Assembly: GCF_053078305.1 (NCBI RefSeq)
Contig: NZ_CP166879.1
Reading direction: 5' to 3' (one strand)
Length of the DNA stretch: 64,000 nucleotides
Below, in pieces: positions 15,915 to 51,321 of the stretch. The notes under the pieces were generated by a model. That model searched no databases. It was not told the origin of the DNA and was given only the letters and a program-made list of their open reading frames with translations. Numbering within the stretch: position 1 is the stretch's first letter; every line of letters starts with the position of its first letter. A program made the translations under genes and the position numbers.

Positions 15915-18900
15915 TCAGAAGGTCACATTCAGTGTGGCCTGACCGTTATACCCTTCAGCGCTGCTGCCGCTGACGCTGTGGGCATAACCGGCCTGAACGC
16001 CCAGGGTGATATTTTCCCGGACACGGGCTTCCAGTCCGGCCTGCAGGTCCAGTGACGTGCCATTCCGGGACGGTGAGAACGTCATGTTACTGCCGGCTGC
16101 AGCTGTACCCATGCTCATGTCCCCCCGGGAGCTGAAGGTGCGGATAACAGAAGGTTGTACCCACCAGTTCACAGGCAGTTCACTCACACCGTGTTTTGTA
16201 CTGTCGCGCAGGGTGTCACGGGATGAGGTGCCTTCACCAAAGGTCATATCGTTGTGGCTGCCCAGACGGAAACCGGCACGCACATGTTGTGCACTGCCAT
16301 ACCCGAACTTCACATAACCGGCGTTATCCTGGCCGTCATCCAGGGAGAGTCCCTGCCAGGTGTACTGCAGTTGCGGCTCCAGCATCAGATTGTCAGTGAT
16401 ACTGAAGGGCAGACCGGTTTCCAGCGAACCCAGCCAGCCCCACCCCCGGGCGCGGAAGTCGTTATTGTCCGTTGACGCTTTCATGCTGTGGCGGGTTCCC
16501 AGGGCCACAATGTCAGCCCACAGGCCGGAGGATGTATGTGTCAGATTCAGGTATCCGCCAAGGCTGCCGGCATCATCCCGGACCGTGCCGGCACGGGAGG
16601 CGTCATCATCCTTAACATCAACGGAAGAATGGCCTGCAGCACCATATATCCCTGCGGTCACAGACATACCGGCAACCTCTGTTCTCAGCAGGTCACCCTC
16701 CAGGCGGACGAAGCCATAGCTGCCGCTGCTTTCCGGCGTGGCCCCACGGGCAATACCGCCGTTGTTATCGTGACCGAGATGGCCGCCCTGAATGCTGAGA
16801 CGGACGCTGTTATTTTCACCGTTTACACCGGTCTGATGGCTGCGTGAGCCTGCCAGAATCCGGTCATAGTCCATTGCCTGTGTCAGCATGGAGGCATACA
16901 GGGGGACTTCTGCACGATAAGCATTTTCACTGCGCAGATACCAGCTCTCATCACTGTCCCGGTTGAGGGAGTAGTTAAAGGCACCGGCCTGCAGCCTGTT
17001 CCCCTGGACAAAGGCCCCTTCCTCCGTGGTGGCACCGTTAATGGCTTCCACCACCTGAATACCCTTACCGCTGGTCGCCAGCCCCGACGCACTGTTGCCA
17101 GCGTTCACCAGGTTCAGGATGGTTTTTCCGGTTGCCCTGCCACCGTCAATGACCAGTCTGTCAGCATTGTTCTGTGCCATATCCGGGCGTACACGCAGGC
17201 TGATGGTGCCATTCTGTCCGTTCAGGTTTTTCACTTTCAGGGTTGCCGGTACGAACTTCCCTGTGCGGGTGGAGGTGAAATGAATCTGTCCGGCATGGCT
17301 GAGGTCATCCACCACCGACTGCACCGTGGCGTTATCGGGGATATTCCAGGTGGCACCGGAGGCGAGAGTGACATTCGTGGGGTCAATGGCACCGTTCAGC
17401 ACAGTGCTGCCGGTCAGCTTCAGGGCTGTACCGCGCTGAGCAATGACATCCGTGGTGACGGTACTGTCGTTCAGCGTCAGCGTGCCTTCATTCAGGTTGA
17501 CGGCTTTCTGGGTGAGTGTGGTGTTGCTGACAGTGAGTGTGCCACTTCCTGATTTTTCCACGCTGCCGTTACCGGTGAGAGAGCCTCCCTGCAGGAGTGC
17601 ATCGCCTTCACGGATGGTCAGGGTATCGTTGTTCACCGTCTTCCCGGAAAGGGTAAGTATGGCGCCGTTATTCAGCGTGGTGGTGCCCGCCAGTGTGCCG
17701 CCCCTGGCGGTGAACAGTCCGCCATTTACCGTGGTATCCGTGGCCGTATCACCGGCGTTCAGCGTGAATGAACTGCCTTTTTCCAGCATCAGGGCATCCG
17801 CCTGACCGCCTCCGATACTGAATGCCTTTCCGTCGCTCCGTGTACCACTGACAGCGGCACCGGAATCGGCCAGCAGTACACCGCCATTCCCCATGGATAC
17901 GGTGGTGGCGGCACCACCGTTGCGGACATCCAGCGTTCCGCCATCATCCACACGGGTATTAGTGGCTGTGTGTCCGCTCAGCACATCCAGACGTCCGCCA
18001 TTTTCCAGTACGACATTATCAGCTTTACCCTCCACAACAGAGAATGCTCCCTGGCGGTTTATGCCGGTAACGGTTGCAGCCGTACTGGTAACCAGTGCGC
18101 CGCCCTGCTTCAGGGTGACATTCGTGGCTGTACCACCGGCGTTCACCTGCAGTTTGCCTTTCTGGTTAACGGTGGTGAAATCCGCCAGACCACCTTCCTT
18201 GACAATCTGCCAGCCGTCACTGTTTACAACCGTGTCAGAGGCTGTGCCTCCGTTGTGCACATACTGGTAACCGCCATTCAGTGTGGTATCCAGCGCATGC
18301 CCGTGTACCGTCTGGTCGCCGCCGGCATAAACCACAGTGGTATTTGCTGTTCCTTCAGCAGCCACAATCTGACGACCATTTTTATTGATAGTGGTACGTA
18401 CGGCATTTCCGCGAACAAACTGCCCGGTATCACCATTTTCTGCATCTGGTCCCCCTTCCGCGCCGGTATTCACAACCGTGTCGGTTGCCATTGCGCCGGA
18501 TTTGACGGCCTGCCAGCCCTTCTCATTAATGACGGTACCCGTTGCAATCCCGCCTTCATGTACCCACTGCTCACCGCCGTTCAGAGTGGTGTTCACTGCC
18601 TGCCCCTGAAGGCTCTGTCCGCCTCCGGCACTGATAACCGTGTCTGAAACACTTCCGCCGGGATTCACTCTCTGAAGACCACCACTGGTGACAGTCGTTT
18701 TGTTGGCTGTACCGCCATCCTGTACCCATTGACCGCCGGTATTGGCCTCATTGTCCGGCCCGTACTCCAGCCCGGTACTGATGGTCATTCCGTTGGTCAT
18801 ACCGAAGACAATCTGGTTGTCATGATTTGTCAGTGTTCCGCCGCTCACGGTTTCTCCCGCCTGTACAACCGTGTCAGCAGCCAGTGCCGGGACTGATGTG

Positions 18901-19034
18901 ACAGCAGCAAGAGACAGCGCAACCGCCACTCCGGCGCGTTTTCCCCGTGAGCGGGCCAGTTCGGAGGCCACCACCAGGGTGCCCGTAATGTGATTCCATA
19001 CCAGCCTGTAGCTGGTGTTCAGATGTCGTTTCAT
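15915..19034 (-). CDS. flu: Antigen 43 self-associating autotransporter adhesin
   Basis: Internal ATG (plus 'cat' 19032-19034) gives 1039 aa starting MKRHLNTSYRLVWNHITGTLVVASELARSRGKR (extended autotransporter signal); repetitive passenger; C-terminal beta-barrel ending ...GQATLNVTF. Confidence 0.92.
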   Translation of the reverse strand: MKRHLNTSYRLVWNHITGTLVVASELARSRGKRAGVAVALSLAAVTSVPALAADTVVQAGETVSGGTLTNHDNQIVFGMTNGMTISTGLEYGPDNEANTGGQWVQDGGTANKTTVTSGGLQRVNPGGSVSDTVISAGGGQSLQGQAVNTTLNGGEQWVHEGGIATGTVINEKGWQAVKSGAMATDTVVNTGAEGGPDAENGDTGQFVRGNAVRTTINKNGRQIVAAEGTANTTVVYAGGDQTVHGHALDTTLNGGYQYVHNGGTASDTVVNSDGWQIVKEGGLADFTTVNQKGKLQVNAGGTATNVTLKQGGALVTSTAATVTGINRQGAFSVVEGKADNVVLENGGRLDVLSGHTATNTRVDDGGTLDVRNGGAATTVSMGNGGVLLADSGAAVSGTRSDGKAFSIGGGQADALMLEKGSSFTLNAGDTATDTTVNGGLFTARGGTLAGTTTLNNGAILTLSGKTVNNDTLTIREGDALLQGGSLTGNGSVEKSGSGTLTVSNTTLTQKAVNLNEGTLTLNDSTVTTDVIAQRGTALKLTGSTVLNGAIDPTNVTLASGATWNIPDNATVQSVVDDLSHAGQIHFTSTRTGKFVPATLKVKNLNGQNGTISLRVRPDMAQNNADRLVIDGGRATGKTILNLVNAGNSASGLATSGKGIQVVEAINGATTEEGAFVQGNRLQAGAFNYSLNRDSDESWYLRSENAYRAEVPLYASMLTQAMDYDRILAGSRSHQTGVNGENNSVRLSIQGGHLGHDNNGGIARGATPESSGSYGFVRLEGDLLRTEVAGMSVTAGIYGAAGHSSVDVKDDDASRAGTVRDDAGSLGGYLNLTHTSSGLWADIVALGTRHSMKASTDNNDFRARGWGWLGSLETGLPFSITDNLMLEPQLQYTWQGLSLDDGQDNAGYVKFGYGSAQHVRAGFRLGSHNDMTFGEGTSSRDTLRDSTKHGVSELPVNWWVQPSVIRTFSSRGDMSMGTAAAGSNMTFSPSRNGTSLDLQAGLEARVRENITLGVQAGYAHSVSGSSAEGYNGQATLNVTF

Positions 19035-19214
19035 CAGCTTTTCCTTAGATTGAGGGTGAATAAAAAAGCCGGTACCCACAAACGTGGATACCGGCAGGTA
19101 AAGGGTTACAGTGCCGGAGGTCCGGCTGTGGGAGTTTCTGAATTGTGGTTCTGTTGTTCCCTGAATGTCTTTCTGTACGTATCTGTGCATGTTACTGACA
19201 AAGGTTATTATTAG

Positions 19215-37000: not shown

Positions 37001-37733
37001 TATCAACGGCAACTTTCGGCACATCACCTTCGCCCTTCAGGGCACTGACACGACCATCTGCAGTTACACGGTTAGCACCTGCAGTGACAGTTAAATCCTT
37101 CGCATGAAGCGCGGCATTCACTTCCGTTGCACGGGCAATAATGGATACGGCATCGCTCCGGGTGCCGTCCAGGCCCGCGCCATTGATGGTGATACTGCCT
37201 TCAGTCACCTCCAGCGCCTGCAGGCTGCCGTCGGCATTCATCACAGGTCTGCCCGTGGTGAGCGTCGCGTGCGGCGTGTTGATAAAGCCACAGCCGTCAC
37301 AGGTGATACCATACGGGTTGGCAACCATCACATTCGCCGCTTTGCCGGCCACTTCCGTATAGCCCTGCAGCAGTGAACGCTTACCGCCGGTCACTTCGTT
37401 GATGATACCCTTCGCTTCCCCGCCCGCTTTCAGGTTCGGGTTATTCTGTATCAGTCCACCAAGCTGCGTCGGATTAAGCTTACCGGTGGCATTATTGAGA
37501 ATCAGCCCTTCCTTCCCGACGTTGTAATCCGTAAACCGGTTATGCGAAATCCCGGCCCCGTCCGGCGTGGCAATGTTCACGACCGGCACACCATTTGCCG
37601 CTTTATCCATTCCGGCCCCGTTTTGTGGGGTGATGACGGCCCCCACAGCCGGTAACAACGGCTGCCCGGCGATAATTGTACTGATAAGGTAACTCAGCAG
37701 GCGGTAAGTGAAGCGAACAGGAGGCTGATGCAT
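28023..37733 (-). CDS. cdiA: CdiA contact-dependent inhibition exoprotein (TPS family)
   Basis: 3236 aa; extended signal [48 protein letters not shown]; TPS domain [26 protein letters not shown]; long filamentous-haemagglutinin-type repeats; VENN motif at 28956..28967 followed by a 310-aa C-terminal toxin region. Confidence 0.92.
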
Positions 37734-37745
37734 GGTAATAATCCC

Positions 37746-39513
37746 TTAAAACGCGACGGCAACGCGCCAGTAAACCGTGAGATGGTCAGGGGCAAGCCAG
37801 TCCGGGTAAACAAGAGGCAGTCCGGCGGTGAACGAACCGGAAACATGACCACTGGTGGTGCTGAGCCCGGCAGCAGCACCCCACAGCGTGCCGGACGAGT
37901 ACGGGTCATCGCTGTCAGAGTGCAGCCAGCCGCCGTCCAGTGCAGTCACTGCACGGACTGTCCCCACATATGGCAGGGAGAACAGAGACCAGGACAGCTC
38001 ATTTCGCAGATAACCGCCGTTATTACCGGAGATATACTGCTCCTTAAAGCCACGCACTGAACTCTCACCCCCGAGGCTCAGTTGTTCCACACCATGAAGA
38101 CGGTCCGGTGACCACTGGGCATAAGCGCTGGTCAGCCACCACACCCTGTCCGTGACGGGGCGCTGAAAACTGGCGCTTAATGACCATTTCCGGAACTGAT
38201 TTACGGGCAGGTCTCCCCTTTTCCCGTGGTCGCTTTCTGCGCCGAACCAGGGCATCCCCCGTGTGAATACCGGATTCAGTGTTCCGACACCCCCCAGAAA
38301 CTTGTGTGTGTGATTCAGCCCGACAGAAAATGAAGTGAGTTTACGGCTGCTGCCCTGAAGCAGAACATCATCCAGATAATTGTGAATAATGCGGTGCTGC
38401 AGACCTCCGGTCAGTGCTGTCTTCATGTCCCCGTTACGGAACAGGACATGCGACAGTCCCAGCCGGTGAGTCTGCAGGTCTCCCGTGGAACGCCACCGCC
38501 AGCCCCGGTTATCAATGGTGCTGAGGTAGTCACTCCATGAATACGTGTAATCCACCAGGGTATAGCCATACGGCAGACTGACACCGGCGGCAAAATTCCT
38601 CGCATCATGTGACACCGAAAAGTCACTGCTCCGTCCTCCGCTGACAAACCAGTTGTCAGCCAGCCCCAGAGGATTATTAAAGGAAAGGACTCCATTTAAC
38701 TGCCCCGTACCGGTATTCTTCTGTCCGCTGTTGTCGATGCCCACGCTCCCTGTGACAGGCCATTCCGGCGATGCCGTCAGTGTCACCACCGACCATCCCT
38801 CACGGTCACCGGGCGATATTTCAATCTGTACCGGCTCCGTACGCAGACGGTTAATCTGCTCCATCCCCTGCTCAATATCCCGCAGGTTCAGAACCTTCCC
38901 CTCCATTCCCGGGAAAACCATCTTCAGGGTGCGGGCAGGAAGGTCAGCGCCTTCCGCCCGGATTTGCTGCAGCCTGCCTTCCATGACCGTTATGTGCAGT
39001 ACGCCCCCTGAAAGGTCCTGCTCTGTCAGAAAGGCCCGGCTGGTGATATATCCCCGGCGTATATAGCCGTCCGTCACGGCATCCGTGACCGCGGTCAGCC
39101 CCGTGATATTCAGACACTGATTCACCCACGGTGCCACCAGTCTGTCGGTTTCTGCAGACGTCAGTCGGGTGGCCCCACTGACAACAATGCGTGACACCGT
39201 AAAGCAGGGACCGTCAGTACCGGCAGACATTTTCCGGAGACGGTATGACAGTCAGCGGCGCACTGCGCTCCAGCGCATCACGCTGACGCTGGTTTTCATC
39301 CAGCAACTGCTGCTGTTGCTGCTGAATGGCACTGCGGTCACCCGGAGACAGCATGGCAGCCGGAGACGAAAACGAAAGAATGCAAAGGCAGGAGAGGAGG
39401 GGAAAATAGCGTGCCACCGGAGAGAAAGTGCGGAGCTTAAATGCGCACTGGCCGGAAACCATACCAGGCAACAACGTTCTGTTCGCCAGTAAGTTATCCT
39501 GCCGGTGCTGCAT
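37746..39513 (-). pseudogene. cdiB: cdiB (TpsB outer-membrane transporter) apparently split by a frameshift
   Basis: N-terminal 99-aa ORF (39214..39513, …PGDRSAIQQQQQQLLDENQRQRDALERSAPLTVIPSPE…) and 494-aa ORF (37746..39230, MSAGTDGPCFTVSRIVVSGATRL…) are in different frames and overlap at 39214..39230 around an A4 run. Confidence 0.7.
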
Positions 39514-39874
39514 ATTCTCCTCGTGGGGTATCCAGTGTAAATTAACGTAAGTGGAATGTCAGTGCTGAAATTTACACCCGATAAAAAACATACAGAAACA
39601 ATCCTGTTATGTAAAATCTGGAAAAATGTCAGAAATGTGATCGAAGTTGTGTTTTACGGAGGGGGAAAAGGAAAAAAGACATCCTTTGATGGTAAAAAAG
39701 ATGTTTCCTGCAGAGTAACAATCAGGAATGCAACACAAGTTCCAGTTCAGGTGTTGTGGATTTGAGTAAAAAAACAGTCATAACTCTCCTGAGAACCTGA
39801 AACTCCTCAGTGTGTTCTTATAAATGGAAAATGCGCAATAACGATGATTCCAGTCACTACTGATAACGCGTTTT

Positions 39875-39914
39875 GCGTATGCCGAACTGTGATCGATTCA
39901 GGTGTCATTTTGCA
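39875..39914 (+). repeat. Right copy of the imperfect direct repeat flanking the cdi module
   Basis: gcgtatgccgaactgtgatcgattcaggtgtcattttgca; see 26500..26543. Confidence 0.6.
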
Positions 39915-40100
39915 CGTTTCTCATCTTTGATGTAACCCACCATCCCTGACCTAGCATCGCAATAAAATTAAGTCTGAATAAAAATTACGACAATTTCACA
40001 GTTTCTGTCGATTGTGGCATTATCAGCAGCATCCACCTCCGGGGTTTACACCGGAGCCTGAACAGGTAAACTACCTGTTCATCCTGTTTATTATCCCTGA

Positions 40101-41000
40101 ATGCTTATGTCGCAGTTCGATTTTACCAGTCTGGATCCCTTTGCCCGAGCCGTTTCTCCTTTTGAGGAAATGGCGGCTTATGAGGCGTTATGGTCAGAAA
40201 AAGGCGCGACATTCAAAACTATTGCGGATAAATTTCGTGCAGCACCAACCGGCTCGCTTCCTTCTGACTTTGTCTCAGACAGCATTATTGCTGCTTTTAA
40301 AAACCGGCTGAAAGAAATTATCGCGCGTTACGATATTGACGATCTGGGGATACGTGTCCATGGGGCCGGAGAATATCCAGAAAAACTGCGGGATGCGCGG
40401 AACCCCATAGAACTTCTTTACTATCAGGGGTGGTGGGACCTGATTAACACTCGCTCGGTAGCTGTTGTTGGTTCCCGTAGAGTCTCTGAAGAAGGAGCAA
40501 AACGAACCCGCAAAGTCGTCAAATTTCTGGTTGAGGATGGTTTTACCATCGTTTCAGGACTGGCTGAAGGCGTGGATACCAACGCGCATCAGACGGCACT
40601 GGCTCTGGGTGGTAAAACGATTGCAGTTATCGGGACACCACTTTCACATCATTATCCCAGACAAAACAGTAATCTGCAGAAAAACATTCGCGACAACCAC
40701 CTGCTTATCAGTCAGGTTCCGTTTCATCGATACCTGGAGCAGGACTATCGGAGCAACCGAATATTTTTTCCGGAGCGAAATGTCACGATGTCTGCGCTGA
40801 CAGAAGCAACGATTATTATTGAAGCATCAGAAACATCAGGTACTCTGACTCAGGCACGTGCGGCACTTGCCCAGGGCCGAAAATTGTTTATTCTGGAATC
40901 CTGCTTTCGTAACCCATCAATTACATGGCCTGCCCGTTTTGAAGCGCAAGGGGCCATTCGGGTCAGGAATTACGAAGACATCAGGAGGCATCTCCGTTGA
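40101..41000 (+). CDS. DprA/Smf-like (DNA-processing protein A fold) protein
   Basis: 299 aa; VAVVGSRRVSEEGAKRTRKVVKFLVEDGFTIVSGLAEGVDTNAHQTALALGGKTIAVIGTPLSHHYPRQNSNL matches the DprA Rossmann-like core; stop overlaps the next gene's start (ATGA). Confidence 0.8.
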   Translation: MLMSQFDFTSLDPFARAVSPFEEMAAYEALWSEKGATFKTIADKFRAAPTGSLPSDFVSDSIIAAFKNRLKEIIARYDIDDLGIRVHGAGEYPEKLRDARNPIELLYYQGWWDLINTRSVAVVGSRRVSEEGAKRTRKVVKFLVEDGFTIVSGLAEGVDTNAHQTALALGGKTIAVIGTPLSHHYPRQNSNLQKNIRDNHLLISQVPFHRYLEQDYRSNRIFFPERNVTMSALTEATIIIEASETSGTLTQARAALAQGRKLFILESCFRNPSITWPARFEAQGAIRVRNYEDIRRHLR

Positions 41001-41623
41001 CACTTCGTCTGACTCTGATTGATGAACTGATACGTAAACAACATCATTATCTGGAGGATGGTGATCTGTGTTATTGCTTTGGCGAATACACAGCCCGACA
41101 AGGCGCTGCTTACAGCGAAACTAACCAGTTAATCATCAATCTTAAAAAGGGGTATGAACGTCGGGCATTCCCTGATTACCACTATAAAAAGGTTGCTATT
41201 GAGTATGTTGCTCAGATGCTCATATCAAATATCGGTAATCTTGAGGAATACACATTTGTTCCCGTACCACCATCCAAATGCCGTACAGATGCCGCTTACG
41301 ATGACCGTATGACAGAAATTCTGCGAATTGCGCAAACCTACGAACCCTGGCTGGATTACCGGGAACTGGTTGTGCAAAACGTATCAACAATTGCCTCTCA
41401 TACCGCAACAAACCGGCCCTCACCAGAAGCGATTATGGCAAACTACCAACTGGATGAACAATTACTGGAGGGATGCAGGCCCTGGATTGTTATTTTTGAT
41501 GACGTTCTTACTGCCGGTAGCCATTTTAAAGCGATGAAAAGCCTGATACTACAACATATTCCTGAAGCCTGTATACTGGGACTCTTTGTTGCCCGAACAA
41601 CCCGGGGAGCTCAAATTATTTAA
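40997..41623 (+). CDS. Phosphoribosyltransferase (PRTase)-like protein
   Basis: 208 aa; C-terminal WIVIFDDVLTAGSHF fits the type I PRTase PRPP-binding motif; translationally coupled to the DprA-like gene. Confidence 0.55.
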   Translation: MTLRLTLIDELIRKQHHYLEDGDLCYCFGEYTARQGAAYSETNQLIINLKKGYERRAFPDYHYKKVAIEYVAQMLISNIGNLEEYTFVPVPPSKCRTDAAYDDRMTEILRIAQTYEPWLDYRELVVQNVSTIASHTATNRPSPEAIMANYQLDEQLLEGCRPWIVIFDDVLTAGSHFKAMKSLILQHIPEACILGLFVARTTRGAQII

Positions 41624-41640
41624 AAAGGGTAAAGTACTCC

Positions 41641-44025
41641 TTAGAATGAAAGCCCTTCACCATCAGCCACAATCCTGTACCCCATCGCCTTATAACCCCG
41701 CTGGCGTTTATCCCACATTCTGAGCAGCACTGGATACGCGGTATCCACAAAATCAATGATCCTGACATCGCTTTTACCGGTATGCTCTCTGTGTAGACGT
41801 CCCGCATACTGCTGTAACGTCCCTTTCCATGACACAGGCATGGCAAGAATCAGCGTATCCAGCGGAGGGTGGTCAAATCCCTCACCAATAAGTCTGCCTG
41901 TTGACAACAAAATACGGGGAGAATCAGGAGGAAGAGCATTCAGCCCGGAAATCATCATAGTACGCTTTTTTTTCGATAATCGACTATGGAGAACAAAAGG
42001 CGACAATTTCAGTGTGTTCATCACTGAGGCTATATCATCCAGATGATCTGTACGTTCAGTCAGTACCAGAACTTTACGCCCCTGCCCAAAAGCTTTCATG
42101 GCTTCTTCAGCTATCGCCACCGTTCTGTCATGATCCAGAGCAATTTCTCTGAAAATATCCTGGATTCTCGCATCCGATGGTAAATGACCAGATGTAAAAC
42201 GGGAACGGGTCAGCACCTCCAGATTATGTGGGCTTTCCTTCGGGCGGGACGCTGTATGGCGAATGGCACCACAGTACATAAAAATAATGGGGTGCAGACC
42301 ATCCCGTCGGATTGGTGTTGCCGTCAGGCCAAGCAGATATCTGGCATTCGTTTCCTTCAGAATCGCAGAAAATGAAACCGCGCCAATATGATGGCACTCA
42401 TCCACAATGATTTGCCCATAATTCCTGACCAGAGGTTCAACTTCTCCGTGTCTGGATATGGACTGCACCACCGCAATATCAATATTGCCACAGGGTTTAT
42501 GTTTCCCTCCCCCGATAATACCAATACTGTCACCGGCCTGCAGAAACACCGCGAGACGCTCCTGCCACTGCTTCAGCAATTCAGTCCGGTGTACCAGTAT
42601 CAGTGTATTCACTTTCCGTCTGGCAATCACTGCCGCTGCGGTAACTGTCTTACCAAAAGCCGTTGGCGCACAAAGCACACCAGTGTCATAACGGAGTAAT
42701 GCCGAAACGGCCTCTTCCTGCTCCGCTCTGAGGTTTCCCATAAAAACGGCATTACATTCCGTCCCGGCAAATCGTTTATCGATTAATTCTGCAGCAATAT
42801 TGTTGTCCCTAAGGAAAGATAATACGCTGTCCAGACATCCCCGGGGCAACGCAATGTGTTGCGGGTAATTCTCCGCACAACCTATAACACGGGGCTTATT
42901 CCAGACTGACATACGCATTGCCTGAGCCTTATAAAACTCAGGGTTCGGAAATGCTGCCAGCCGAATAAGTCGGTTAATCAGCACCTGAGGTAATTGCGCT
43001 TTTTCGAAATAGATCTGATTTGCCAGCGTGATTTTCAGCGGTTCAGCAACAGCAAGATTCAGTCTGTTTCCTGATGATTTTTTCCCTTCCCATGGCGTAC
43101 CCAGGTCTTCTTCGTTGATAAAGTTCACATCCAGAGGATGGATACTTCCTGTAGCCCGTAATATCGTCGGTTCAATATCCTGCACATTCATCGGGAGCAC
43201 CGACGCAAGAAAAGCCCACTGATCAGGATGAGGCTGGAAATTCATATCAACAAAAACACTTCCCCCCGATGCACGCGGTCTTTTTTGCAGAGGTAACGCG
43301 ATAAGATTACCAAATCCTCCTTTTGGCATCGTATCCTGATTAGGAAATAATCGGTCATAAGAACTCAATTGCAGCTGTCGGGTCCGGCTGCACGTATAGC
43401 TAATAACAGCAGTCCCCAGACGGCGAGCTTCGCGGGCCGAAACTCGTGAAGCAAAAAATATCCAGACATGCGCTCCCTGACGTGAGCGGGATATTTCCAG
43501 CACAGCGGGTACACCCAGCTCATCACAGGCTCGCATGAACGCGGATGCATCCTTCTGCCATTCAGCTTCATCAAAATCAACAGCCAGAAAATAACAGGAA
43601 TCATCTTCCAGCAACGGATATAACCCGGCAGTATGCGTGCCTGCCAGATGCTGGTAGATGACAAGATCAGATACAGGAATCAACTGACGGTGAACGCAGT
43701 CCCCACATTTTATCCGGGGCTTACCGCATATTCCCAACTGCCATTCGTTAGCGCAGGCCGGCGAGTACCCTGATTTGCCGCTGGTTTTACTTTCCCATCT
43801 AAGTGCCCATACATCATCACGCCCACGAAACAACCGACGAAATAATGCAACCTTCTCGTCGGTGGATAATACAGAAACGCGCTGCACAGGAGTCTGCGGT
43901 TTACGTCTCCATTCAATCCCATGAGCTTCAAGTAATGAGACCAGACGGGCATTTTCTGCCCTCAATGCAGCTAATTCATCGCTGTCAGATTTATGAACCA
44001 TATTCGTTACCTGTATCCGATCCAC
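41641..44025 (-). CDS. Fusion protein: AEP primase-polymerase-like N-terminal domain plus SF2 helicase C-terminal domain (yfjK-position)
   Basis: 794 aa; N-terminal AVDFDE and SRSRQGAHVWIFF plus Cys cluster GICGKPRIKCGDCVH; helicase motifs CAPTAFGKT, VDECHH, TATP, QQYAGRLHR. Confidence 0.7.
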   Translation of the reverse strand: MDRIQVTNMVHKSDSDELAALRAENARLVSLLEAHGIEWRRKPQTPVQRVSVLSTDEKVALFRRLFRGRDDVWALRWESKTSGKSGYSPACANEWQLGICGKPRIKCGDCVHRQLIPVSDLVIYQHLAGTHTAGLYPLLEDDSCYFLAVDFDEAEWQKDASAFMRACDELGVPAVLEISRSRQGAHVWIFFASRVSAREARRLGTAVISYTCSRTRQLQLSSYDRLFPNQDTMPKGGFGNLIALPLQKRPRASGGSVFVDMNFQPHPDQWAFLASVLPMNVQDIEPTILRATGSIHPLDVNFINEEDLGTPWEGKKSSGNRLNLAVAEPLKITLANQIYFEKAQLPQVLINRLIRLAAFPNPEFYKAQAMRMSVWNKPRVIGCAENYPQHIALPRGCLDSVLSFLRDNNIAAELIDKRFAGTECNAVFMGNLRAEQEEAVSALLRYDTGVLCAPTAFGKTVTAAAVIARRKVNTLILVHRTELLKQWQERLAVFLQAGDSIGIIGGGKHKPCGNIDIAVVQSISRHGEVEPLVRNYGQIIVDECHHIGAVSFSAILKETNARYLLGLTATPIRRDGLHPIIFMYCGAIRHTASRPKESPHNLEVLTRSRFTSGHLPSDARIQDIFREIALDHDRTVAIAEEAMKAFGQGRKVLVLTERTDHLDDIASVMNTLKLSPFVLHSRLSKKKRTMMISGLNALPPDSPRILLSTGRLIGEGFDHPPLDTLILAMPVSWKGTLQQYAGRLHREHTGKSDVRIIDFVDTAYPVLLRMWDKRQRGYKAMGYRIVADGEGLSF

Positions 44026-45677: not shown

Positions 45678-47132
45678 TCAGAGGTCAAAGTTAGGTGCGA
45701 CATACCACGTTTTGTCGTCAATAAACTGTACAACTCTGTTTTGCTCATACAGTAAATCCAGTAACCAGTTGAGTTTATCTTTTTTACGGAAACGGTTCGG
45801 ACCACGCTGTAAAATGTCATTTTTTCTCATACAGCGTATCCCCTTCTCAATGCAACAGCTTTTTATCCAGTTGAAAAGTTCAAGCTCCTCTGGAATGAGT
45901 CGCATAGGTACGGTCAGTGCAGAGTTTTCAAACGTTAACGGACTGGATAACCGAATATACTCATCGCCGTACCATATTGCTAATTCTCTCGCCATTTCAG
46001 CAGTGTAGGGGGAAATGTCACCTTCCTCACCGCTAAAATGGTGAATAAGCCCTGCCAGTCTTGCCATATACTCTGCATTTTTAGCAGCATATTCTCTGAA
46101 GTCTCTTAAAGGCCCCAGAACCGACATCTTCGATTCCACATTGTTGTAATAGTCCGTCCAGATTCTGGCTGCCTGAGGAGAAAAGTGAAGGCAACGCCGC
46201 TCTCCCCTCATAGCCAGGCTTTCATCAATGAGTTCATTTATCCTCTGTTCAAACAAATCCTGATACTGTGATGAATAATTATCTCCGGTTATTATTATCC
46301 TTGTCCCCTGCGTTGATGTTGGTTGACACATCAAAAACCTTGCATGATGTCCTGACGTTTTCACAAGTTCTTTTTTTCGTGTACAAAAACCTTTGTGGTA
46401 AACATCAGGCTGAACCATCACCGATATCGTCAGTCTTGGCTCCTTCAAAAAAATTCCGGGAGATGATTTCCTGTCGATGAAAAGAGAACCACCATCCCAC
46501 AAAGAGTTAAGTATTCCCAGTTTACTCATTGCCCGGCTGTCAAAAATTATCCCACCTTCACTGGATACAAGAGCAAAAGAGCGGTTGCTATCAGAATAAT
46601 ATTTTAACATTCCCTCTATCGTTGTATCATTAAAAATTGTTCGATGTATCTGTGGTGGAACAGGACACTTATTCAGATGTGTTTTAAGCTCTGATTCTGT
46701 TGTCTTATAATCTTTACCGGTACGAATCTCTTTATGAAGTTTTGACTCCAGTGCTTTTTGTTTTTGCGCCCATATTTCCTTTTCTGTACTGTAACTCTCA
46801 ACCAGTTTCGCGTATTCTTCCGCCAGGGCTTCATCCCTGAGATAAAATGCTTTCATAAACACTTTATCCACGGTCGTTTTCCTTTCACCAGAATCAGCCA
46901 GAATCATAGAGTAAATATTAGAGGACCCACGTAAATTTCCTGGTCTGCACACATCAACCTGATTCTGACAGGCAATTGACATCGCTGTTAATGCTGCAGT
47001 TATCGCCATAGCTATAGGTGTCTGTGTATTCTTTTGAGTTTCAATTATTGCATTTCTCGCCAGCGGTGGCATTGCATATATCGGACAAGGATTTTCTGGT
47101 GCAAGTAAGCACATAAATGCCTCTCTTTTCAT
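45678..47132 (-). CDS. DUF3987-type protein (YfjI-like)
   Basis: 484-aa ORF; follows alpA as yfjI does in CP4-57; family recalled. Confidence 0.6.
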   Translation of the reverse strand: MKREAFMCLLAPENPCPIYAMPPLARNAIIETQKNTQTPIAMAITAALTAMSIACQNQVDVCRPGNLRGSSNIYSMILADSGERKTTVDKVFMKAFYLRDEALAEEYAKLVESYSTEKEIWAQKQKALESKLHKEIRTGKDYKTTESELKTHLNKCPVPPQIHRTIFNDTTIEGMLKYYSDSNRSFALVSSEGGIIFDSRAMSKLGILNSLWDGGSLFIDRKSSPGIFLKEPRLTISVMVQPDVYHKGFCTRKKELVKTSGHHARFLMCQPTSTQGTRIIITGDNYSSQYQDLFEQRINELIDESLAMRGERRCLHFSPQAARIWTDYYNNVESKMSVLGPLRDFREYAAKNAEYMARLAGLIHHFSGEEGDISPYTAEMARELAIWYGDEYIRLSSPLTFENSALTVPMRLIPEELELFNWIKSCCIEKGIRCMRKNDILQRGPNRFRKKDKLNWLLDLLYEQNRVVQFIDDKTWYVAPNFDL

Positions 47133-51235: not shown

Positions 51236-51291
51236 TTGATTTAAATGGTGCCGATAATAGGAGTCGAACCTACGACCTTCGCATTACGAAT
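51236..51291 (-). repeat. thrW-proximal att repeat (3' 46 nt of tRNA-Thr plus ttgatttaaa)
   Basis: Identical to 5333..5388. Confidence 0.85.
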
Positions 51292-51321
51292 GCGCTGCTC
51301 TACCAACTGAGCTATATCGGC
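51246..51321 (-). tRNA. thrW: tRNA-Thr (anticodon CGU)
   Basis: Reverse complement GCCGATATAGCTCAGTTGGTAGAGCAGCGCATTCGTAATGCGAAGGTCGTAGGTTCGACTCCTATTATCGGCACCA; 76 nt with CCA end; immediately downstream of proA. Confidence 0.95.

Follow-up and report, generated by a model that had tools for sequence, protein, structure and literature searches.

Introduction

The closest described counterpart of the locus considered here is CdiB of Escherichia coli EC93 (PDB 6WIM), a TpsB/Omp85 protein of the type Vb secretion pathway. In the portions of its structural description that are drawn on here (Guerin et al., 2020; PMC7644211), plug helix H1 comprises the first 29 mature residues (AMLSPGDRSAIQQQQQQLLDENQRQRDAL), and is followed by a linker which extends to the first conserved cysteine; the crystal structure is disordered at mature residues 42-43. 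The same portions of that report indicate that release of CdiA-Nt into the supernatant requires the cognate CdiB, and that CdiB devoid of both H1 and the linker still secretes CdiA-Nt.

The present analysis concerns a contact-dependent inhibition (CDI) locus of the cdiBAI type within a 64,000-nucleotide stretch of E. coli strain 48 (contig NZ_CP166879.1 of assembly GCF_053078305.1; hereafter, the window), in which the first gene is divided between two reading frames. As written, this cdiB reads as a pseudogene of the CdiB/TpsB family. The initial annotation of the sequence had offered two explanations, namely a secretion-dead locus or a sequencing error. These prove to be the right pair of alternatives to weigh; the evidence, comprising a second record of the strain, a lack of homopolymer noise and lesions in related loci, leans towards a real lesion, while the likely PacBio-only origin of the data keeps the error alternative alive.

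Results

Layout of the disrupted cdiB gene

From its annotated start at 39513, cdiB proceeds through 94 native codons (...LTVIPSPE), and then through AAT GTC TGC CGG TAC TGA. A second open reading frame (ORF) begins with an ATG at 39230-39228, the first base of which is the last A of the A4 run, and continues for 494 codons to 37746, such that the two ORFs overlap at 39214..39230 (Table 1). This is the layout that the initial annotation had described as a +1 frameshift in the A4 run, and it had further predicted that the removal of one A would restore the frame. The repaired gene indeed encodes a continuous protein, of 588 residues (589 codons including the stop, as opposed to the approximately 589 residues anticipated), whose sole difference from the CdiB of STEC17-190 (WP_135256467.1) is E100D. 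The substitution responsible lies directly 3' of the TGA of the 99-residue ORF, 17 nt from the insertion.

The repaired protein shows close identity to an experimentally characterized CdiB, aligning with 6WIM_A at 1209 bits over residues 53-588. The break, between E94 and M95 (mature residues 42/43), interrupts the flexible linker that joins H1 to POTRA1. The 494-residue ORF, which starts 8 residues before the conserved cysteine, holds the last 8 residues of the linker followed by the arrangement typical of the CdiB/TpsB family, that is, two POTRA domains and then a ShlB-type barrel, all recognized by Pfam. The signal peptide, H1 and remainder of the linker, which in members of this family are joined to the POTRA-barrel unit, lie in a different frame. 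The insertion hence parts these N-terminal elements from the POTRA-barrel and leaves cdiA and cdiI intact, as had been proposed.

Table 1. Features of the cdi locus in the window, with positions given on the numbering of the whole stretch.
Feature	Position	Strand	Remarks
cdiB, ShlB/FhaC/HecB TpsB transporter, with 1-bp insertion	37746..39513	minus	1768 nt; intact orthologues 1767 nt
N-terminal fragment ORF, 99 aa	39214..39513	minus	ends ...SPENVCRY*, TGA stop at 39216-39214
Signal peptide, residues 1-52	39358..39513	minus	6WIM alignment begins at residue 53
Helix H1, residues 53-81	39271..39357	minus	H1 sequence from PMC7644211
Linker, first part, residues 82-94 of the 99-aa ORF		minus	followed by out-of-frame tail NVCRY and TGA
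A4 run (AAAA), holding the inserted base	39230..39233	minus	AAA in every relative
Second strain-private change, A>C on coding strand	39213	minus	GAA>GAC, E100D
C-terminal ORF, 494 aa, no signal peptide	37746..39230	minus	starts MSAGTDGPCF
POTRA_2	38976..39203	minus	Pfam, 2.7e-25, in 494-aa ORF
POTRA_3	38811..38969	minus	Pfam, 5.7e-19, in 494-aa ORF
ShlB beta-barrel	37860..38798	minus	Pfam, 2.5e-91, in 494-aa ORF
Promoter-like hexamers upstream of cdiB	39514..39615	minus	consensus matches only
cdiA, intact, 3236 aa	28023..37733	minus	TPS N-terminal domain (2.7e-50), then PT-VENN, DUF6862 and C-terminal TNT toxin
cdiI, intact Imm63 immunity gene, 136 aa	27611..28021	minus	Imm63, 2e-30

The remainder of the locus and its island

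In other respects the locus has the organization of a complete cdiBAI system. A cdiA gene encoding a TPS domain and a PT-VENN-delimited toxin lies directly downstream of cdiB, after a gap of 12 nt, and an Imm63 immunity ORF stands right behind it, 1 nt after cdiA. Both cdiA and cdiI are identical to the copies in relatives. An independent Logan assembly, SRR29740787, encodes the very same CdiA protein, there alongside an unbroken cdiB that has AAA. The CdiA C-terminus (28023-29225) that is paired with Imm63 belongs to the tuberculosis necrotizing toxin (TNT) family; the name given by PGAP to CdiA orthologues, 'contact-dependent inhibition effector tRNA nuclease', looks generic and unfitting for this domain. 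The exact Imm63 protein occurs in 2158 blocks of the gene index.

The CDI locus resides within an island of approximately 46 kb (~5340-51246), inserted at a tRNA-Thr(CGT) gene (51246..51321) next to proA; a copy of the tRNA 3' end (TGGTGCCGATAATAGG) is found near 5340, adjoining an integrase (5518..6873). Immediately upstream of cdiB, and divergent from it, is a TOTE conflict-system cluster (40101-44025) encoding a DprA-like protein (299 aa), a 208-aa protein without a Pfam hit, and an AEP-TOTE primase-helicase (794 aa). This cluster accompanies cdiBAI in most relatives, including the EC93 plasmid pCP127. Elsewhere in the window, an Ag43-type autotransporter ORF (15915-19190) that is split by IS66 in STEC17-190 is unbroken (1091 aa from the first ATG). 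A DUF3987/YfjI-family gene carries a private TTA triplet expansion at 46289-46291, resulting in a protein of 478 aa as compared with 477 aa in relatives, an exact copy of which is present on only two contigs of more than 1 Mb in the gene index. Finally, compared with STEC17-190, the window has a shorter prfH (59214-59771) and lacks the rtcB-family gene beside it; ET350 has similar remnants.

Distribution and polarity of the A4 allele

Only two columns of a whole-gene alignment against 13 annotated relatives are private to the window: the extra A, and the A>C at 39213 (20 columns, or 17 nt, apart). Comparison with intact orthologues, which had been proposed as a check of the frameshift, returned AAA in all 13 of these relatives and in 19 further loci found via neighboring proteins, the latter also having the ancestral base at 39213. 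ET350, the closest core relative, has an empty thrW site, and so carries no polarity information on the insertion; the closest relatives of the island are STEC17-190 and SI-NP020. When 5,426 complete genomes of E. coli were searched with a 55-nt probe over the A-run, each of the 63 records matched was one base shorter, leaving zero occurrences of the A4 allele in that set, and the 39213 allele likewise had no full-length match in these genomes. The index of 153 billion genes contained no exact copy of the 494-aa, 99-aa or alternative-start 463-aa product, nor of the repaired 588-aa protein, and a 31-mer containing A4 had no exact match in metagenome contigs or GTDB representative genomes. A literature search for frameshifted or pseudogene cdiB found nothing specific to E. 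coli cdiB, and no repeat of at least 9 nt that might have served as a template for either private change was found within 1.5 kb.

As all aligned relatives have AAA, the split in cdiB represents a derived insertion and not a chance pair of ORFs. These alignments indicate that the uninterrupted frame is ancestral and A4 a derived +1 insertion, and that the A4 allele and the 39213 substitution are, across the sequences compared, private to a single strain, E. coli 48.

The same data bear on whether the A-run could act as a phase-variable contingency switch, by which reversible changes in run length would alternately enable and silence CDI. The lesion does fall in a homopolymer, in the 5' part of the gene that opens the operon, which would suit such a role. 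True contingency tracts are long and length-polymorphic, however, whereas this run has three bases in all relatives and four only here, with AAA being invariant across approximately 30 aligned relatives and at every probe match in the 5,426 genomes. The presence of AAA in all relatives excludes a length-variable contingency tract, as it does a conserved recoding site, and we find such a switch scarcely credible.

Lesions in related CDI loci

Damage to CDI genes is recurrent among the relatives. According to PGAP, cdiB is frameshifted in 3 of 13 (SI-NP020, OkiPb01677 and the 2014C-3097 plasmid), at three different sites, and in 2 of 10 cdiA has a frameshift or a truncation. At least four independent assemblies (L029, L030, L036 and L038; positions 1-1907) share the same in-frame cdiB'-'cdiA fusion (...HVLFRN/PNLKAGG...), and in two other loci (L021 and L028) only a CdiA-CT fragment and cdiI are left. 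The four fusion loci also have a second in-frame deletion, of approximately 1.85 kb, in the cdiA repeats, and the fusion product is called at 2881 aa, with POTRA, ShlB and TPS hits. The cdiB of SI-NP020, the second-closest relative of the island, has its own private frameshift at alignment column 304 (~39209), 23 nt downstream of that in the window; here, too, an indel and a substitution lie side by side (GGTCCC to GGGCC). The SI-NP020 lesion is private, and the G-run lesion of the plasmid occurs in three records only; neither proves that such lesions are real.

Mutation or consensus error

A second record of the strain is available as JPQG01000002.1 (GCA_000736735.1); PMC5323612 assigns JPQG00000000 to E. 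coli strain 48, an STEC from roe deer that carries subAB2-3. The contig matches the window at 100% identity across 37607-43500 and 38615-60252, including A4 and the substitution at 39213, and differs once in 17611-38022, where it reads GGGG at 30194 in cdiA (position 7829 of the contig as extracted, L026) and the window GGGGG. This G4/G5 discrepancy is the only difference in the approximately 42.6 kb compared, and implies that at least one version of the strain 48 sequence contains a homopolymer error. With GGGG, the frame of cdiA would be lost in that contig, for which no cdiA product has been recorded. The two versions may stem from shared reads, in which case their agreement on A4 does not amount to independent replication.

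We favor the interpretation, to which we assign a probability of roughly 65%, that the insertion is a genuine, strain-private loss-of-function mutation (AAA to AAAA at codon 94/95). Two non-identical versions of strain 48 agree on A4, which is present in the version whose cdiA G-run reads correctly. Moreover, no other unpaired 1-nt indel was found in 23.4 kb of the island (compared three ways) or in 13.6 kb of the core (compared with ET350). As a contrast case for sequencing noise we used L037 (GCA_026135705.1), an error-laden assembly of the same island, which over 5.9 kb departs from the window by seven single-base indels, each within a run of at least five bases, and makes no call at cdiB. 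Weighing against a real lesion are the lack of an independent isolate with A4 among the data searched, and the proximity of the indel and the substitution, which could mark a locally poor consensus.

The principal competing explanation, which we consider unlikely though of appreciable weight, is that strain 48 truly has AAA and an intact 588-aa cdiB, and that an assembly made from long reads alone has left the extra A, and possibly the neighboring substitution, as uncorrected errors. The submitting group assembled five related or sister strains from PacBio data only, using SMRT Analysis without short-read polishing, and the platform used for strain 48 is deduced from a later paper of that group. 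The G4/G5 discrepancy demonstrates consensus instability in the strain 48 data, and no other dataset searched carries A4. In addition, the two private changes fall within 17 nt, and elsewhere in the 23.4 kb of island only three other private SNPs and one triplet indel occur, a pattern that fits a low-quality patch. Counting five other private events in the 23.4 kb (three SNPs, one triplet indel and the partner of this indel), we estimate the chance of two private changes lying 17 nt apart at approximately 1%; either a poor consensus or a complex mutation could equally account for it. Against an error, the insertion affects a run of three bases, whereas the long-read errors seen here occur in runs of four to five or more and are mostly deletions; the window is without other single-base indels relative to close relatives; and A4 is also found in the version with the correct cdiA G-run. 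Furthermore, a rough estimate from the sampled relatives makes a real lesion in cdiB several-fold likelier a priori than an error in a gene of 1.8 kb.

The substitution at 39213

The second private change falls within a local mRNA hairpin (39209-39253) whose loop holds both the A-run and the internal AUG, and it turns a G-A mismatch into a G-C pair. Of 240 possible substitutions, this one stabilizes the hairpin most when RNA energy parameters are used (rank 1; -5.5 kcal/mol); with DNA parameters it ranks 45 of 240. A quasi-palindrome template-switch origin of the SNP was accordingly set aside, being supported under RNA parameters only. The A insertion itself leaves the stability of the hairpin unchanged. 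As a further result of the substitution, the TGA that closes the N-terminal fragment is followed by C (TGA-C) in place of A (TGA-A).

From these features it could be argued that insertion and substitution form one coupled event, in which the weak UGA-C and the hairpin would permit low-level +1 frameshifting or termination-reinitiation, producing a little full-length CdiB with five altered linker residues, such that CDI would be throttled and not abolished. We judge this to be highly improbable.

Consequences for export and immunity

If the insertion is genuine, as we favor, then translation from the native start would stop after 99 residues, giving a product made up of the signal peptide, the plug helix H1 and some of the linker. 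The other 494 codons (8 linker residues, POTRA1, POTRA2 and the 16-strand barrel) would at best be translated from the ATG in the A-run, for which a GG two or three bases upstream is the sole ribosome-binding element. Translation of this ORF would rely mainly on reinitiation after the stop codon situated 14 nt downstream, which might limit polarity on cdiA, but would not be expected to restore CdiB function. From established type Vb biology, the 494-aa product could not reach the outer membrane because it has no Sec signal peptide; it would instead remain in the cytoplasm, without insertion into that membrane. Without CdiB, the 3236-aa, TNT-type CdiA should be unable to cross the outer membrane, and toxin delivery would be dead in cis, while cdiI could still protect the cell from neighbors armed with the same toxin. 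The outcomes predicted from the sequence are, then, that export and CDI activity are lost and that immunity persists. The idea of a secretion-dead locus retained for immunity fares well in its first part, given a broken cdiB with intact cdiA and cdiI; retention for immunity is the more conjectural part, and as the lesion is private and probably recent, selection for retention need not be invoked.

CDI might nevertheless persist alongside a real lesion if a second, intact CdiB were encoded elsewhere, for example on a pO113-like plasmid, or if rare +1 frameshifting occurred in the 17-nt overlap, at the cost of five altered residues. Many STEC plasmids carry a cdiB that is 99.6% identical over the 5' 561 bases compared, genomes have up to five cdiB places, and relaxed transporter specificity is reportedly claimed in the title of a Burkholderia study; the window, however, holds no second CdiB. 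With regard to frameshifting, the private SNP creates the TGA-C context that Poole and colleagues, in 1995, are said to have found to be the weakest stop context in E. coli. The replacement of MSAGT by NVCRY might also be tolerated, inasmuch as H1 and the linker are dispensable, and mature residues 42-43 disordered, in the portions of Guerin et al. (2020) cited above (PMC7644211). Yet the overlap (GAA AAU GUC UGC CGG UAC UGA) contains no known slippery motif, offers no P-site re-pairing of the CUU-UGA kind, and by inspection has no upstream Shine-Dalgarno stimulator; nor is it conserved as a recoding site, the frame being uninterrupted in all relatives. Both hallmarks of a programmed +1 frameshift, namely conservation, and a slippery P-site codon with a stimulator, are hence wanting, and we regard continued CDI activity by either route as quite improbable.

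Discussion

The disruption of cdiB in E. coli 48 is an instance of ordinary single-base gene decay in a well-known accessory toxin locus, and as such is not novel. The lesion is probably recent. Decay is seen repeatedly in the thrW-island CDI family, and we propose that the lesion in the window may represent an early step in this process. If it is real, then strain 48 cannot export CdiA via this CdiB, and would behave as an immune non-aggressor towards kin that carry the same TNT/Imm63 module. Its relevance is limited to users of strain 48, and to studies in which CDI function is scored from gene presence alone. In the latter respect, several of the thrW-island CDI loci sampled here have a disabled cdiB or cdiA and have kept cdiI, such that surveys of gene presence could overestimate active CDI. 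If, on the other hand, the insertion is an error, it serves as a reminder that false pseudogenes can arise from long-read-only assemblies.

Among known systems, the repaired protein most closely resembles CdiB of EC93, with which it aligns end to end. The two share the order of H1, linker, POTRA1, POTRA2 and barrel, and the position upstream of a cdiA with a TPS domain; in the window, by contrast, the frame is broken at mature residues 42/43, and the POTRA-barrel is detached from the signal peptide. The engineered CdiB lacking H1 and the linker, as presented in the portions of the structural report considered here (PMC7644211), has almost the same N-terminus as the 494-aa ORF and still secreted CdiA-Nt. 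That construct, which starts from the conserved cysteine, was able to reach the membrane fraction, presumably having retained an export signal. The natural fragment is without a signal peptide, so its likeness to the construct does not imply function.

A second likeness is to programmed +1 frameshifting of the prfB type, in that a +1 shift before the in-frame UGA-C would likewise restore the frame in the window. The window differs from this system in having neither a slippery CUU-U nor an internal Shine-Dalgarno element, in the lack of conservation of the site, and in that the ancestral frame is uninterrupted. The locus can also be compared with the degraded CDI loci and orphan cdiA-CT/cdiI modules of E. 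coli, in which the delivery genes have been inactivated and the immunity gene kept, as in the window. Relative to these, the lesion in strain 48 is the mildest possible, consisting of one base, in one strain only, with cdiA and cdiI fully intact.
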